Shown here in pieces: positions 8,083 to 59,637 of a stretch of DNA of 64,000 bases. The notes under the pieces were generated by a model. That model ran no database searches. It saw nothing but the letters and a program-made list of their open reading frames with translations, and was not told the origin of the DNA. The stretch covers positions 100,683 to 164,682 of the forward strand of contig JACPVG010000003.1 of the NCBI GenBank assembly GCA_016191875.1, in the 5' to 3' direction. The translations under genes and the position numbers were made by a program. Position 1 is the first letter of the stretch. Each line of letters starts with the position of its first letter. Origin of the DNA: Chloroflexota bacterium (GTDB taxonomy: Bacteria; Chloroflexota; Anaerolineae; Anaerolineales; UBA11579).

Positions 8083-8156
8083 GGGCGGGTAGCTCAGTTG
8101 GTTAGAGCATTGCGTTGACATCGCAAAGGTCGTAGGTTCGAGCCCTATCCCGCCCA
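8083..8156 (+). tRNA. tRNA-Val (anticodon GAC)
   Basis: Manual cloverleaf. Acceptor GGGCGGG/CCCGCCC, D-arm GCTCAGTTGGTTAGAGC, anticodon loop TTGACAT, T-arm GTAGGTTCGAGCCCTAT. No encoded CCA. Confidence 0.9.
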
Positions 8157-8161
8157 CTGAT

Positions 8162-10284: not shown

Positions 10285-11958
10285 TCAGTTCCGGTGCGGT
10301 CGGGGGAAGATCAGGACGACCAGGGCGAGCAGCGCGCCGCCCAGCAGGACGGCCGCGAATTCCGTTTCGCGATTCGAATACAACTGAACACCGCTGAATA
10401 ACAGTCCGAGGAAGACCAGCGCCGTCGCCACACGCCGCAAAGCCCGTTCCAGCCGGCCCAGTTGGCGCGCCACCTCCGGCACGTTCACCTCCAGGTCGCC
10501 GCGCTCCGCCTGCGCAAGGACCCGCGCCGCCTGGCCGGGCAGCGCCACGAGCACTTTGGCATAGTCGCCGATCTGCCCCAGCCAGTAGTTGAAATCGCCG
10601 CCGGCCTCGGTTGCCAGCAGCTTCTTGGCATACGGCGCCAGATGGTCCCAGAAATTGAACGTGGGCGCCAGGCCGGTGCACAGGCCGGATAGCGTCGCCA
10701 CCGTTTTGAACAGGAAGATCAGGTCCTTGGGCACCTGGAACGGCATGTCAAACAGCAGTTCGCGGAATTCGACGGCCAGCGTGTGCATCTCCTCAAAGCC
10801 GATCTGGCGCAATTCGTCCATACTCTTGCCCCAGAACACGTTGAAGACCTTGTCCTCGGCCTTCTTCAGCAGTTCAAGGTCTGCGCCCGGCAGCAATACG
10901 TTCAGGGTCTGATAACCCTTCACCAGCCGGTCATGGTCGCGCCTGGCGATGCCGATGGCGATCTCGCGCAGGCCCTCGCGCGCCCCCGGCTGCACGTGAC
11001 CCACCATGCCGAAATCCACCAGCGTCAGCGTCCAGGGGTGCGGGTCGCTCTCAGTGGGCGGCAACGGCTGGATGAACAGGTTGCCGGGGTGCGGGTCGGC
11101 GTGGAAGAAGCCATCCTCGAAGATCTGCTGCATGTAGATGTCAAACACTCGCCCCGCCACCGCCGCGCGGTCAATGCCCGCGGCGTCGATGGCGGCGTAA
11201 TCGTTGATCTTGATCGCAAACACGTCTTCGAGTGTCAGCACTCGCTGGGTGGTGTGGCTCCACAGCACGCGCGGCACGCGTATCTCGGGTCGCTCCCTGA
11301 AATTGGCGGCAAAGGTCTCAGCATTGCGCCCTTCGGCCAGGTAGTCGATTTCTTCGTAAAGCGTGCGCGCCAGTTCGCCCAGCAGCGCCGGCACGTTCAC
11401 TCGGCGGCGGATCGGGCGGTAGCGCATCAGCCAGCGGCTCACCGTGGCCAGCGCCGCCAGGTCGGTCGCCAGGATTCCTTCAATACCCGGGCGCTGGATC
11501 TTGACCACGACATCGAGGGACTTGTTCAGCCCGGCGTCCGGCGCCGCGACCAGCCGCGCCCGGTGCACCTGGCCCAGCGACGCCGCCGCCAGCGGCGCGG
11601 GGTCGAAGTCGGCGTAGCGCACGGCCAGCGGCGCGCCCAGTTCGGCTTCGGCCTGGGCGCGGATGCGCTCGAAGTCTTCGGCGGGCACCTCGTCCTGCAG
11701 GCCGGAAAGCTCGTCGGTGATCTCCGGCGGCAGCACGTCCGCCCGGGCGGAGAGGAACTGCCCCAACTTGATCAGCACCCCGCCCATGCGCACGGCCAGG
11801 TCGTGGTAGGCGCGGGCGATGTTTCGCAGCCGGGCCGGGCGGTTGCGTTTTGCCAGCCGGCCAAACCCCAGCCGCGCCAGCAGCAGTTCCCACCAGGCCA
11901 GCCTCAGGATCACGTTCGCGAAGAAGAGGAGGATACGCCAATAACGCGTGGTTTTCAC
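10285..11958 (-). CDS. ABC1/UbiB-family atypical protein kinase with C-terminal TM helices
   Basis: 557 aa. The stretch LGQFLSARADVLPPEITDELSGLQDEVP, and also HADPHPGNL and DFGMVG, are characteristic of ABC1/AarF. Confidence 0.85.
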   Translation of the reverse strand: MKTTRYWRILLFFANVILRLAWWELLLARLGFGRLAKRNRPARLRNIARAYHDLAVRMGGVLIKLGQFLSARADVLPPEITDELSGLQDEVPAEDFERIRAQAEAELGAPLAVRYADFDPAPLAAASLGQVHRARLVAAPDAGLNKSLDVVVKIQRPGIEGILATDLAALATVSRWLMRYRPIRRRVNVPALLGELARTLYEEIDYLAEGRNAETFAANFRERPEIRVPRVLWSHTTQRVLTLEDVFAIKINDYAAIDAAGIDRAAVAGRVFDIYMQQIFEDGFFHADPHPGNLFIQPLPPTESDPHPWTLTLVDFGMVGHVQPGAREGLREIAIGIARRDHDRLVKGYQTLNVLLPGADLELLKKAEDKVFNVFWGKSMDELRQIGFEEMHTLAVEFRELLFDMPFQVPKDLIFLFKTVATLSGLCTGLAPTFNFWDHLAPYAKKLLATEAGGDFNYWLGQIGDYAKVLVALPGQAARVLAQAERGDLEVNVPEVARQLGRLERALRRVATALVFLGLLFSGVQLYSNRETEFAAVLLGGALLALVVLIFPRPHRN

Positions 11959-11990
11959 GCCCGAATTATAGTCCCGGCGCGGAGTCGCGC

Positions 11991-12019
11991 TTGACTCAGC
12001 CGCCGCCCCTTGCTACAAT
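11991..12019 (+). promoter_or_regulatory. Strong sigma70-type promoter of the phhA leader
   Basis: TTGACT (11991-11996), 17 nt, TACAAT (12014-12019). Confidence 0.55.
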
Positions 12020-12028
12020 CGCCCCACG

Positions 12029-12127
12029 ATGGCAAAGCGCAACCCCCGCAACCTGTATCGCCCCTATTATTATGCCGTGACCCACACGGCCGGTTTCGGT
12101 TTGCCTGACGAAGGAAACACCCCCTAG
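12029..12127 (+). CDS. Candidate leader peptide MAKRNPRNLYRPYYYAVTHTAGFGLPDEGNTP (32 aa)
   Basis: ATG lies 9 nt after the -10 and has no SD, so it would be a leaderless-type start. It has 4 Tyr codons, all TAT. Hairpin GCCGTG (12074-12079) / CACGGC (12085-12090) follows the YYY run. Not shown to be translated. Confidence 0.3.
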   Translation: MAKRNPRNLYRPYYYAVTHTAGFGLPDEGNTP

Positions 12128-12152
12128 CAGCACCCATCCCCTTTGTTGAATT

Positions 12153-12189
12153 GCCACAGGCGCACCCCCGGCCTGTGGCTTTTTATTTT
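12153..12189 (+). terminator. Intrinsic terminator (attenuator) directly upstream of the phhA RBS
   Basis: GCCACAGGC (12153-12161) pairs with GCCTGTGGC (12171-12179), followed by TTTTTATTTT. No plus-strand gene ends upstream of it. Confidence 0.7.
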
Positions 12190-12208
12190 CATGCCCAGGA
12201 GGCAGACG

Positions 12209-12934
12209 ATGGAAGCATCCCCGATCCCCCAGCCACGGCGGCGCAAAGCCGAAACCTTTGCGCCCGAGCTGCACGAGGTGTGGGCCGCGCTCTACGCCCG
12301 CCAGTTGCCCAACGTGCAGCGCTACGCCTGCCGCGCCTACCAGGAAGGGCTCGACGTGCTCGGCTTACCCGCCGACCGCATCCCCACCCTGGCAGAACTG
12401 AACGCCCGCATCACCCCGCCCACCGGCTGGCGCGCCGTGCGCACCACCGTGCGCTACTCGGATGCCGTGCCGTGGTACCACCACTTCGCCCGCCGCCAGT
12501 TCCTCATCACCGACTACATGCGGTCCTGGGAGGAACTGGATTTCACCCCCGAACCGGATATGTTCCACGACATTTTCGGCCACCTGCCGTTCATGGCGCT
12601 GCCGGACTACACTGCTCTGCAGGAAATGTTCGCCCCGGCCTTCCTGCGCGCCGACGATGCCCGGCGCGAAGACATCAAGCGCCTGGCATGGTTCAGCACT
12701 GAGTTCGGTTTGATTCGCGAGGATGGCGAGATCAAGGTCTTCGGCGCCGGGCTGATCTCGTCCTTCGGCGAGATTCACAACGTCGTCAGCGGCGGCGTGC
12801 CATTGCTGCCGTTCACGCTGGAGAACGTCCTCCGGCATGATAAAGCCATCTACTCGTTCAACTCGACCTTGTTCGTGATTGAGTCGCTCGACGCCCTCAA
12901 AGCCGAACTGGCGCGCTACTTCGATGCCGTTTGA
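12209..12934 (+). CDS. phhA: Phenylalanine 4-hydroxylase
   Basis: ATG 12209 follows AGGAGG (12197-12202). Aromatic amino acid hydroxylase motifs PDMFHDIFGHLPFM, STEFGL and GAGLISSFGE. Confidence 0.85.
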   Translation: MEASPIPQPRRRKAETFAPELHEVWAALYARQLPNVQRYACRAYQEGLDVLGLPADRIPTLAELNARITPPTGWRAVRTTVRYSDAVPWYHHFARRQFLITDYMRSWEELDFTPEPDMFHDIFGHLPFMALPDYTALQEMFAPAFLRADDARREDIKRLAWFSTEFGLIREDGEIKVFGAGLISSFGEIHNVVSGGVPLLPFTLENVLRHDKAIYSFNSTLFVIESLDALKAELARYFDAV

Positions 12935-13002: not shown

Positions 13003-13032
13003 GTAGGGACAGGTTCATAAACCTGTCCCTAC
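13003..13032. repeat. REP-like perfect hairpin, GTAGGGACAGG family
   Basis: GTAGGGACAGGTT-CATA-AACCTGTCCCTAC. A near-identical copy (one loop nucleotide different) lies at 18943-18972. Confidence 0.8.
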
Positions 13033-13044
13033 TACTACTACTAC
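13030..13044. repeat. (TAC)5 microsatellite abutting the REP hairpin
   Basis: Five tandem TAC units read directly. The half-site at 19285-19297 is also followed by TAC. Confidence 0.8.
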
Positions 13045-13231: not shown

Positions 13232-13444
13232 ATGACGGAGAGCGTGTATAAGGTCATCGAGCTGGTCGGCACCAGCACCGAATCGTGGGAAAAGGCCGCC
13301 GCCGCGGCCGTCGCCACCGCCTCCAAGAGCCTGAAAGACCTGCGCATTGCCGAGGTGGTGCAACTGGATATGCAGATCGAGGACGGCAAGGTCGCCCAAT
13401 ACCGCACCAAACTAAAAGTTTCTTTCAAGTACCACACTGACTGA
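13232..13444 (+). CDS. Dodecin-family flavin-binding protein
   Basis: 70 aa. The whole-length pattern SVYKVIELVGTSTESWEKAA...LRIAEVVQLDMQIEDGKV..YRTKLKVSFKY is typical of dodecin. AAGGAG RBS. Confidence 0.8.
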   Translation: MTESVYKVIELVGTSTESWEKAAAAAVATASKSLKDLRIAEVVQLDMQIEDGKVAQYRTKLKVSFKYHTD

Positions 13445-14968: not shown

Positions 14969-15225
14969 CATAGGAACACGCACTGACCGGGATGAGTAAC
15001 CGGCCCCGCCCTCCCAGAGAGAGGCCCGCCACCGACTGCAAGCGGCCTTGAGGCGCAACCGGCGAACACCCCCCGCGAGCGGAACCCCGAACGGCCCTGT
15101 GCCCAGTAAGGCGAACGGCTGGCCCCGTTACAGGCCGCAATGAGATGGTCCTCCCCGGAGGGCTAACTTAGGTGGAACCGTGTGAGTGACGCTCACGCCC
15201 TAAGCGGCGTGAGCGTTTTGTTTTG
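14969..15225 (+). promoter_or_regulatory. T-box riboswitch leader (tRNA-sensing transcription attenuator), presumably Thr-specific
   Basis: T-box AACTTAGGTGGAACCGTG (15165-15182). Antiterminator helices are 15167-72/15199-204 and 15180-86/15192-98, enclosing the bulge TGGAACC. Competing terminator ACGCTCACGCC (15189-99) / GGCGTGAGCGT (15206-16) plus TTTTGTTTT. GATGAG at 14991 and AGAGAGAG at 15016. Confidence 0.85.
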
Positions 15226-58412: not shown

Positions 58413-58485
58413 GCATCGATTTGCTGTATCAATCGTTCCTGGGAATTCCGTTTTGAGCAAGCAGCAACCCTTTTTAAACAGCTTC

Positions 58486-59637
58486 TTAGGGCCCGGTTCC
58501 CGGCCCTACCCCCGGCGGCAGGCCGCAGCCTTCCAGCGTCACGATGTTGCAGCCCTCGATGACACAGCCCTCGCCGGTGATGAAGTTGCAGTTCTCCAGC
58601 AGCGCGCACTCCGGGTAGACCGACGAATCGCAGAACGCCCCCAGCAGGCAGCCCTCGCCCGTCACCAGGTTGCAGCCCCAGGGCAGCGTGCAGCCTTCCC
58701 CCGTATCCGGGTCACAGCCGGGCGGCAGGTCGCAGCCCTGGCCGGTGATGGGGTTGCAGCCGGAGGGCAGCGTGCAGCCCAGGCCGGTGGCCGGGTCGCA
58801 GTCCGGCGGCAGGTCGCAGCCCGCGCCGGTCAGCGGGTCGCAATCCAGCGGCAGTTCACAGCCTTCGCCGGTGGCCGGGTCGCAGCCTTCCGGTAGGTCG
58901 TCCGGGTCCAGCAGCCCCTGGTCAACCGCCAGGTTCACCGCCCCCGGCACGTTGGCGATCCAGGCGTTCAACTGATAGGGTTCCATGCGCTCGGGCGGGG
59001 TGGGCGGCGCGCCGGCGTCCAGGATCTCGGCGCGCTGGCCGCCGCTGAACTGCACGCTGCCCAGGCTGTTGGCGACGCTGCACACGCCCTCCAGGCAGGT
59101 GGCGAACAACTGCCCCAGCGCGTTCAGGCGCACGCCCAGCCAGGTGCCGCGCACCGAGGCCGTCCCGGAAATGGTATCCACCTTGAATGTGCCGCCGCCC
59201 AGCGCCCCTTCCAGGATGACGAACAGTTCGCCCTTCAGCAGTTCGAGCAGCGTCTGCGGCTCGGCCGTGGTCCCTGAAAGGTCATGCAGGATGAACAACG
59301 TGTTGGGGGCCAGGCGCGCCAGCGTGCCTTCGCTGAAGGCCACAGCCGCCCGGCTCTCCGCGCCGGTGTTCACCCGGTTGCCGTTTTCCAGCGCCTGGTC
59401 GACCTGGGCCGCCAGCCATTCTTCCTGCTCGAACGGCTGCCAGAACACCTCATTCTCGAGTTCGCTCAGCCAGGCCTGGCGCGGGCCGGCGGGCGTTTCG
59501 GCAGCGGCCAGGGCGGCCGCGCTGGCAGGCACAGCCGTCGGCGCGTCCCCGCTGGGCGTGGTGAGGGTGAGGTTGCAGGCGACCGCCAGCAGGGCAGCGG
59601 CGCTCAGGATGGTAAGAAACGGAGAACGGATATTCAT
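58486..59637 (-). CDS. Secreted FecR-domain protein with a C-terminal Cys-rich tandem-repeat region
   Basis: Signal peptide (LLAVAC). FecR-like segment RAAVAFSEGTLARLAPNTLF. Nine 14-residue CxPxTGxGCxLPxx repeats. Confidence 0.7.
   Translation of the reverse strand: MNIRSPFLTILSAAALLAVACNLTLTTPSGDAPTAVPASAAALAAAETPAGPRQAWLSELENEVFWQPFEQEEWLAAQVDQALENGNRVNTGAESRAAVAFSEGTLARLAPNTLFILHDLSGTTAEPQTLLELLKGELFVILEGALGGGTFKVDTISGTASVRGTWLGVRLNALGQLFATCLEGVCSVANSLGSVQFSGGQRAEILDAGAPPTPPERMEPYQLNAWIANVPGAVNLAVDQGLLDPDDLPEGCDPATGEGCELPLDCDPLTGAGCDLPPDCDPATGLGCTLPSGCNPITGQGCDLPPGCDPDTGEGCTLPWGCNLVTGEGCLLGAFCDSSVYPECALLENCNFITGEGCVIEGCNIVTLEGCGLPPGVGPGTGP
58510..58884 (-). repeat. Nine tandem 42-bp coding repeats (CxPxTGxGCxLPxx)
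   Basis: Residues 252-376: CDPATGEGCELPLD, CDPLTGAGCDLPPD, CDPATGLGCTLPSG, CNPITGQGCDLPPG, CDPDTGEGCTLPWG, CNLVTGEGCLLGAF, CDSSVYPECALLEN, CNFITGEGCVIEG, CNIVTLEGCGLPPG. Confidence 0.85.

Follow-up and report, generated by a model that had tools for sequence, protein, structure and literature searches.

Organization of the phhA locus

The window analysed here is a stretch of 64,000 nucleotides (nt) from a Chloroflexota bacterium (Anaerolineae; Anaerolineales; UBA11579), positions 100,683 to 164,682 of contig JACPVG010000003.1 in assembly GCA_016191875.1. On its plus strand it carries phhA, a gene for an aromatic amino acid hydroxylase, and directly upstream a short leader with a promoter-like sequence, a small open reading frame (mini-ORF) containing a run of Tyr codons, and a terminator-like hairpin. 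This leader, here proposed to be a Tyr-specific transcription attenuator of phhA, is the subject of the analysis. The elements of the locus are the following (MFE, minimum free energy; CDS, coding sequence; aa, amino acids).

11991..12019, plus strand: sigma-70-type promoter, TTGACT / 17-nt spacer / TGcTACAAT (sequence and promoter scan)
12029..12127, plus strand: leader mini-ORF, 32 codons and TAG, without a Shine-Dalgarno sequence (sequence, ORF translation)
12056..12073, plus strand: putative regulatory Tyr codons Y10 (12056-58) and Y13-Y15 (12065-73), all TAT (codon reading)
12074..12090, plus strand: local hairpin, GCCGTG 12074-79 / CACGGC 12085-90, directly past the Tyr run (in the MFE fold)
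12125..12127, plus strand: leader stop codon, within the predicted antiterminator loop (leader geometry)
12153..12189, plus strand: predicted intrinsic terminator with a 9-bp G+C-rich stem, a 9-nt loop and the T-tract TTTTTATTTT (folding energy, conservation)
12197..12934, plus strand: phhA, Shine-Dalgarno 12197-12202, CDS 12209-12934, 241 aa, aromatic amino acid hydroxylase (Pfam)

The hexamers TTGACT (11991-11996) and TACAAT (12014-12019) are accompanied by a TG at 12011-12012, which gives an extended -10, and the promoter scored 10/12 plus TG. The scan found 4 promoter-like sites in 7 kb, vs 1.0 +/- 0.9 in shuffles. Transcription would start near 12026-12027. The ATG of the mini-ORF at 12029 is 9 nt past the -10 hexamer, the encoded peptide is MAKRNPRNLYRPYYYAVTHTAGFGLPDEGNTP, and its translation start is probably leaderless. 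The promoter, the ATG, the 32-codon ORF and its four TAT codons had been placed at these same positions in the first-pass annotation of this DNA, made from the sequence alone, as had the hairpin after the Tyr run. Its reading of the Tyr codons of phhA as TAC only also agrees with our count (0 TAT, 9 TAC); 45 ORFs of the window, a crude set, have 66 TAT and 236 TAC.

The terminator arms, GCCACAGGC (12153-61) and GCCTGTGGC (12171-79), followed by TTTTTATTTT (12180-89), have a predicted energy of -20.5 kcal/mol; a simple terminator scan missed the structure at 12153-79, having a loop limit of 8 nt where the actual loop has 9 nt. From the leader stop codon (12125-27) there are 19 nt to the extended base of the terminator (12147) and 25 nt to the core 5' arm (12153). 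The fold of the 170-nt leader is better than that of shuffled sequences (z=-2.9). Downstream, the phhA Shine-Dalgarno sequence AGGAGG begins 7 nt past the T-tract, and the phhA ATG is at 12209. The 9-bp stem and T-tract close to AGGAGG are therefore as first described, with the gap corrected from 8 to 7 nt. With just 7 nt between the T-tract and the Shine-Dalgarno sequence, there is no room there for a separate phhA promoter, as had been argued, and the simple scan found no other plus-strand promoter-like site near phhA.

The product of phhA matches Pfam Biopterin_H (E=1.7e-35), and among NCBIfam models it scores highest with the phenylalanine 4-monooxygenase equivalogs (NF008877 / TIGR01267), whose cut-offs it does not reach. 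It is identical to a database protein (P0001) named 'amino acid hydroxylase [Chloroflexi bacterium]', and its closest other relatives, from Anaerolineae, have at most 75% identity. A phenylalanine 4-monooxygenase function fits the Tyr-linked regulation proposed below, as well as the neighbouring GTP cyclohydrolase I gene found in relatives.

Conservation of the leader in related phhA loci

Loci containing phhA were collected from genomes, metagenomes and an exact-protein look-up, and are cited by number (L002 and so on). A search of the leader against the related loci with nhmmer returned no similarity, and the family emerged only on reading the regions upstream of phhA. The layout of promoter, Tyr mini-ORF, terminator and phhA is present in about 27 non-identical loci from about 20 lineages (Anaerolineae, Chloroflexota). 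By eye, at least 12 lineages have a TTGAC -35 and a TGn extended -10 in the corresponding position upstream of the mini-ORF. The start codon is 7-12 nt past the -10 hexamer in at least 9 lineages, and other lineages have a Shine-Dalgarno sequence or a longer 5' untranslated region. Taking the transcription start as predicted, a near-leaderless start appears to be a conserved feature of these leaders. The spacing is also kept within limits, with 36-57 nt from the last Tyr codon to the stop, 19-37 nt from the stop to the terminator and 20-88 nt from the terminator to phhA.

Every leader carries 2-5 Tyr codons, varying only between TAT and TAC, so that the Tyr run is conserved in related phhA spacers, which had been named in the first-pass annotation as a point on which the idea would stand or fall. 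Its suggestion that rare TAT codons act as the trigger is not borne out, because TAT and TAC are both used freely among the relatives; a single tRNA-Tyr normally decodes the two. The Tyr motifs include YYDGYYY, YYVYGY, YYYY, YVYYANY, YYAYY, SYYSYGY, SYYYASH, YPYYIY, YGYAY, YSYYY, YYQVYY and SYYYYAY. Across lineages the peptides have only the Tyr codons in common, with shared motifs confined to sub-lineages, as for ANGKKKRLVLICVE in L123, L129 and L131, which keep ANGKKKRLVLICVE(I/S)xD after the Tyr codons. The peptide nearest to that of the window is MAKHNLSQYVVYYYAETTPAALPCLR, in L124. In the group with the SYYSYGY motif, substitutions in the Tyr block are all synonymous and at the third position, and the C-terminal part is translated in two different frames over conserved nucleotides; together these indicate selection on codons at the Tyr run and on RNA downstream of it.

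The terminator stem, GCCACRGG / CCYGUGGC, is nearly invariant, with 91% of cells paired across 20 leaders and few compensatory A-U/G-C exchanges, counted by alignment column. This near-invariance (alignment A1, columns 141-167) is seen despite PhhA identities of only about 60-70%, with loops and the segment termed region 2 below varying freely. GC-rich hairpins past the Tyr run are found in many lineages and are not clear in the closest relatives, L124 and L126 (by eye). A ribosome stalled on the Tyr codons would cover the 5' strand of the local hairpin at 12074-90, and any role of this hairpin as a pause signal is speculative.

Gene order was also compared. L123 and L126 have the phhA-TetR-hydrolase synteny of the window, where a dodecin-family gene (13232-13444, Pfam E=7e-27) stands between phhA and the TetR-hydrolase pair; none was called in L123 or L126. 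In three relatives a tRNA-Val(GAC) gene is found directly upstream of the Tyr leader (L039:2675-2751, L124:953-1029, L129:511-587), and in L124 no promoter is visible between this gene and the mini-ORF. The tRNA-Val(GAC) gene of the window (8083-8157) is 3.9 kb upstream of the leader, with GNAT, membrane-protein ORF and ABC1-kinase genes between them.

Control searches on the Tyr run

In the 64 kb of the window, both strands included, the leader mini-ORF is the sole one having at least 3 codons of one rare residue within 5 codons and a strong terminator after it. The window has two TAYTAYTAY sites, vs 0.06 expected (shuffle estimate). For the position control, 580 kb of related loci were used, and 13 of the 17 runs of at least 3 TAY codons fell 123-162 nt upstream of phhA. 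The residue control covered 101 non-identical loci, in 34 of which a strong terminator lies no more than 150 nt from phhA, and considered the frames ending 10-45 nt before that terminator: at least 3 codons in 7 for the same residue were reached by Tyr in 24 of the 34 loci, followed by R (13), L (10) and P (9).

Outside the leader, TAYTAYTAY is present in the window just once, in a (TAC)5 run at 13030-44. A perfect 13-bp hairpin, GTAGGGACAGGTT-CATA-AACCTGTCCCTAC, without a T-tract, runs into it (window 13003-13044, about 70 nt past the phhA stop), and the run follows an in-frame TAA with no start codon. It was considered as a related element and is treated as unrelated, having no counterpart in relatives.

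Alternative RNA structures

Three regions of the leader RNA are predicted to form mutually exclusive helices, and their positions in the window are given below.

12030..12049, plus strand: region 1, 5' strand of the anti-antiterminator, pairing with region 2 with the Tyr codons in the loop between (MFE fold)
12087..12114, plus strand: region 2, pairing with region 1 or region 3, 5' strand of the antiterminator (folding, duplex tests)
12140..12170, plus strand: region 3, which supplies the 3' strand of the antiterminator and takes in the terminator loop (12162-70), its 5' arm (12153-61) and the flank 5' of that arm (folding, loop test)
12091-93 with 12168-70, plus strand: 2:3 pairing block (folding)
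12098-12100 with 12164-66, plus strand: 2:3 pairing block (folding)
12102-07 with 12157-62, plus strand: 2:3 pairing block (folding)
12108-14 with 12140-46, plus strand: 2:3 pairing block (folding)

For the antiterminator, leaders were folded after masking a ribosome footprint over the Tyr codons and truncating the RNA ahead of the terminator 3' arm. With this mask, all 20 of the 20 leaders pair the terminator 5' arm and loop with the segment between the Tyr codons and the stop, in a helix that encloses the leader stop codon; when the mask is moved to the stop codon, the terminator 5' arm is unpaired. The first-pass annotation had found no convincing antiterminator by eye; one is predicted here throughout the family, with a modest form in the window. 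The likeness of 12082-90 to the left arm of the terminator, noted in the first-pass annotation, has a parallel in other lineages, e.g., L004, where by eye the stretch just past the Tyr codons also looks like that arm. A pairing of 12085-93 with the terminator 3' arm (12167-76), also drawn by eye, was dropped, as folding predicts the 2:3 helix in every lineage.

Column covariation for the antiterminator (MAFFT alignments A1 and A2) is unusable, because the pairing register shifts between sub-families, and duplex tests of cognate vs non-cognate segments served as an alignment-free substitute; column counts were used for the terminator stem alone. In the loop test, the upstream segment of each lineage was paired with the terminator loop plus 3 nt of arm of each lineage, and cognate combinations were compared with permuted ones. 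Complementarity to the loop makes a good test, since terminator loops are normally free to vary. Cognate 2:3 pairs were favoured with p=0.0008 in 12 lineages and with z=-5.76 (p<=5e-6, 0 of 200,000 permutations) in 20 lineages, and shuffling of the upstream segment gave a Stouffer combined z of -5.3. The 1:2 pairing is cognate-specific as well (z=-3.75, p=1.7e-4, 18 lineages). Compensatory changes, of the kind that the first-pass annotation had proposed to look for in relatives, can be seen for 2:3 in GAGUCCC:GGGACUC (L005) vs GUGUCCC:GGGACAC (L004) and in CUUUGC:GCAAAG (L124) vs CUGGUGU:ACACCAG (L123). Further 2:3 pairs are GCGUGUAU:GUAUACGC (L125) and CUUCGCGUUC:GAACGCGAAG (L043). In the window, the 1:2 duplex of 12030-49 with 12087-12106 (-20.3 kcal/mol) is first in its row of the cognate test and is present in the MFE fold.

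T-box leaders and gene contexts of phhA

A T-box leader takes the place of the mini-ORF in some relatives, with phhA of L002 (identical to L136) and of the diverged L134 having a T-box and no mini-ORF. L002 encodes the PhhA closest to that of the window in the genome set. The T-box loci, from a covariance-model scan, are:

L002:2567-2982, T-box ahead of phhA
L134:408-900, T-box ahead of phhA
L136:485-900, T-box ahead of phhA

Their scores are 51.1 and 48.3 bits, with E=2.8e-10 in a 601-nt scan and 5.4e-09 / 2.9e-08 in a joint scan. The Rfam gathering score for the T-box is 93; Chloroflexota T-boxes score lower and are seen only with E-value thresholds. The specifier loops read GAA-C-UAC-C and GAA-G-UAC-C, where UAC (Tyr) is the sole codon conserved in any register. 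This register is validated by the T-box of thrS in the window, which reads ACC (Thr) at the same position. The thrS T-box (14974-15205, 58.2 bits, E=3.7e-12) comes with a terminator (15188-15217) and lies downstream of a promoter of perfect consensus (TTGACA, 16-nt spacer, TATAAT, 14935-62). Being below the gathering score, this T-box would be missed by standard Rfam annotation. The same search that finds it gave no T-box match (RF00230) in the window leader (11900-12300), even at E<=10. In L002, two successive terminator-like hairpins stand ahead of phhA. The gene next after phhA in the T-box loci is for GTP cyclohydrolase I, of pterin cofactor synthesis.

A neighbour-joining tree, built without support values, groups the leader-bearing PhhAs in a single clade and places the T-box PhhAs within it. 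The sister phhA clade has no leader and has a plain promoter and a divergent gene resembling a short-chain dehydrogenase, which might be a pteridine reductase; in this clade (L009-L023, L029, L034, L063-L102) a promoter of the TTGAC-N17-GTGATAATAT type is found directly before the Shine-Dalgarno sequence. More distant phhA genes (L035, L113, L114 and L117, labelled as Acidimicrobiia or Gammaproteobacteria metagenome-assembled genomes) are directly after an hppD-like gene, so called from a C-terminus resembling 4-hydroxyphenylpyruvate dioxygenase, a catabolic setting in which no Tyr leader is present.

Elsewhere in the window, a tandem repeat at 58648-58887 (42/84-nt units, 5.6 or 2.9 copies, 71-75% matches) lies inside a long minus-strand ORF (58485-59637) and probably encodes a repetitive protein domain.

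Proposed mechanism and alternative explanations

At the level of the family, a 5' ORF with Tyr codons, a terminator without an intervening promoter, and the 2:3 and 1:2 pairings were all found. Here it is proposed, with a probability of about 0.8, that the leader controls phhA as a Tyr-specific transcription attenuator of the classical, ribosome-mediated leader-peptide type. The comparative evidence supports in this way the earlier idea that read-through into phhA would be controlled by the Tyr mini-ORF. Transcription would begin from the promoter at 11991-12019, with the start of the 32-codon ORF very close to the 5' end of the RNA. When charged tRNA-Tyr is plentiful, the ribosome would pass 12056-73 and reach the stop at 12125, inside the antiterminator loop and on part of region 2, leaving region 3 free, so that the terminator (12153-79 and its T-tract) would form and the transcript would end before phhA. 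If the mini-ORF is not translated, region 1 (12030-49) would pair with region 2 (12087-12106), the terminator would again form and phhA would be off. When charged tRNA-Tyr is scarce, the ribosome would stall at the Tyr codons and block the 1:2 pairing, and the free region 2 would pair with region 3 (12140-70) once this is made, with no terminator forming and RNA polymerase entering phhA. PhhA would then convert Phe to Tyr.

Several points weigh against this proposal. The transcription start, translation, stalling, termination and tyrosine response are all read from sequence comparison, and so is the substrate of PhhA, which falls below the NCBIfam equivalog cut-offs (213 vs 247 bits and 179 vs 265 bits). 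The leaders of L028, L045 and L065 have just 2 Tyr codons. The double use of the 5' arm, in terminator and antiterminator, partly explains the near-invariance of the stem and perhaps not all of it. In the window itself, the 2:3 helix is modest (-14 to -18 kcal/mol; z=-0.9, p about 0.17 against shuffles) and comes 4th to 6th among 20 in the cognate comparison, and equilibrium folding with the Tyr codons masked still prefers the terminator, so the window switch must be kinetic. In the E. coli trp leader the terminator is likewise favoured over the antiterminator. The antiterminator of the window rests on homology of architecture and is the weakest link in the case.

It is improbable that the unit is an independent small gene, coding for a small protein or small RNA between a promoter and a terminator of its own, with phhA expressed from another signal or by unregulated leak. 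The unit does have its own promoter and a strong terminator, the mini-ORF is annotated by gene callers in some contigs, and the leader region has an RsaE-like match (a C-rich stretch plus the terminator), its best sub-threshold Rfam match. However, at 19.8 bits this match is far under the gathering score of 79, the 7-nt gap and the simple scan leave no site for a nearby phhA promoter, the unit is always directly before phhA in the approximately 20 lineages, and its peptide is unconserved outside the Tyr codons, sub-lineage motifs aside, with a C-terminus that changes frame in one group. To much the same degree, a translation-free device is not expected, whether a riboswitch-like RNA or a protein binding the GCCACRGG hairpin, sensing Tyr, Phe or a pterin. 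It would be in keeping with the nearly invariant stem, the alternative RNA structures and a leader fold better than shuffles, but it leaves unexplained the start codon beside the promoter, the synonymous changes at in-frame Tyr codons and the position of the stop codon; besides, no Rfam family matches and there is no conserved aptamer-like core, the leaders being too different outside the terminator for nhmmer.

A nascent-peptide sensor of the TnaC type, where free tyrosine or phenylalanine would arrest the ribosome, is marginally less probable again. The peptide kept after the Tyr codons in some sub-lineages, such as that of L123, L129 and L131, speaks for it and makes it less improbable in those sub-lineages, but this conservation coincides with RNA region 2, only the Tyr codons are conserved across lineages at the peptide level, and the replacement by a T-box points to tRNA-Tyr charging as the signal. 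A chance meeting of a promoter-like site, a Tyr-rich ORF and a hairpin has a negligible probability: a YYY run in 128 kb of two-strand sequence is by itself no great surprise (about 0.5 expected from base composition, against the shuffle estimate given above), but the arrangement is kept in about 20 lineages and the residue, position and duplex controls agree, which refutes chance for practical purposes.

With attenuation by tRNA-Tyr charging as the preferred explanation, a role for PhhA can also be suggested. That a shortage of Tyr should induce the enzyme is logical only if its role is biosynthetic, which implies that PhhA in the Anaerolineae leader clade may serve tyrosine synthesis and not phenylalanine breakdown. 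We are inclined, with some reserve, towards a wider claim, that the leaders represent an undescribed family of Tyr-specific leaderless attenuators in a clade of Anaerolineae, exchanged with a Tyr T-box and marking PhhA as a biosynthetic enzyme induced by tyrosine starvation, possibly the main route to Tyr. If so, tyrosine joins the amino acids sensed by leader-peptide attenuation and Chloroflexota joins the phyla using attenuation. The placing of phhA under a tRNA-Tyr charging signal via two unrelated RNA mechanisms in sister lineages would be a clear regulatory replacement. The regulatory logic would give a functional reading, tyrosine synthesis, for a poorly annotated PhhA of uncultured Anaerolineae, in contrast with the catabolic setting of phhA behind hppD in other phyla. 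The leaderless start also raises the question of how a 70S-initiated ribosome is coupled with RNA polymerase in an attenuator.

Comparison with known regulatory systems

At gathering thresholds, Rfam returned no family, the Trp, His, Leu, Thr and Phe leaders included, in the leader region or in 19 related loci. No publication describing a Tyr-codon leader peptide, or any leader peptide ahead of phhA, came up in literature searches, whose coverage was incomplete so that novelty is unproven.

For phenylalanine hydroxylase, the nearest parallel is found in the Bacillus cereus group, where the phenylalanine 4-hydroxylase gene is T-box regulated (Wels et al. 2008, PMC2494555). The two systems have in common the gene, a tRNA-charging signal, transcription antitermination and an enzyme acting as a tyrosine route; unlike the B. 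cereus group, the window leader is without T-box features and has a translated mini-ORF instead. For tyrosine, E. coli aroF-tyrA has the entry 'Attenuator sensing tyr-tRNA' in a table of PMC2659441, citing physiological work (Camakaris et al. 1980). As that entry has it, Tyr-tRNA supply would likewise control a tyrosine pathway gene there; the gene and organism are different, and the available portion of the PMC2659441 text defines no Tyr-codon leader peptide.

The leader also resembles TnaC of tnaCAB, in having a short ORF before an aromatic amino acid gene and a ribosome whose position would govern termination. In TnaC the sensing of the free amino acid relies on a conserved peptide, and the termination affected is Rho-dependent. 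Unlike TnaC, the phhA leader peptide is unconserved across lineages, and the leader has a run of regulatory codons and an intrinsic terminator.

The closest likeness in mechanism is to E. coli trpL, pheL, hisL, leuL, thrL and ilvL, where a short ORF with many codons for the pathway product is likewise followed by an intrinsic terminator ahead of the structural gene, with mutually exclusive 1:2, 2:3 and 3:4 helices chosen by the position of the ribosome. The terminator also exceeds the antiterminator in stability, as it does in the trp leader. The phhA leader differs from these classical attenuators in its amino acid, tyrosine, in its phylum, Chloroflexota, and in its target, a single phenylalanine hydroxylase gene and not a de novo biosynthetic operon. 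It differs also in its apparently leaderless ORF, with the ATG 7-12 nt past the -10 and no Shine-Dalgarno sequence, and in having the Tyr codons in the 1:2 loop, not within region 1, and the stop inside the antiterminator loop. While attenuation of this kind is textbook material, the novelty lies in the amino acid sensed, the gene controlled and the phylum, and also in the leaderless start and the swapping of leader peptide and T-box, all of which can be tested.

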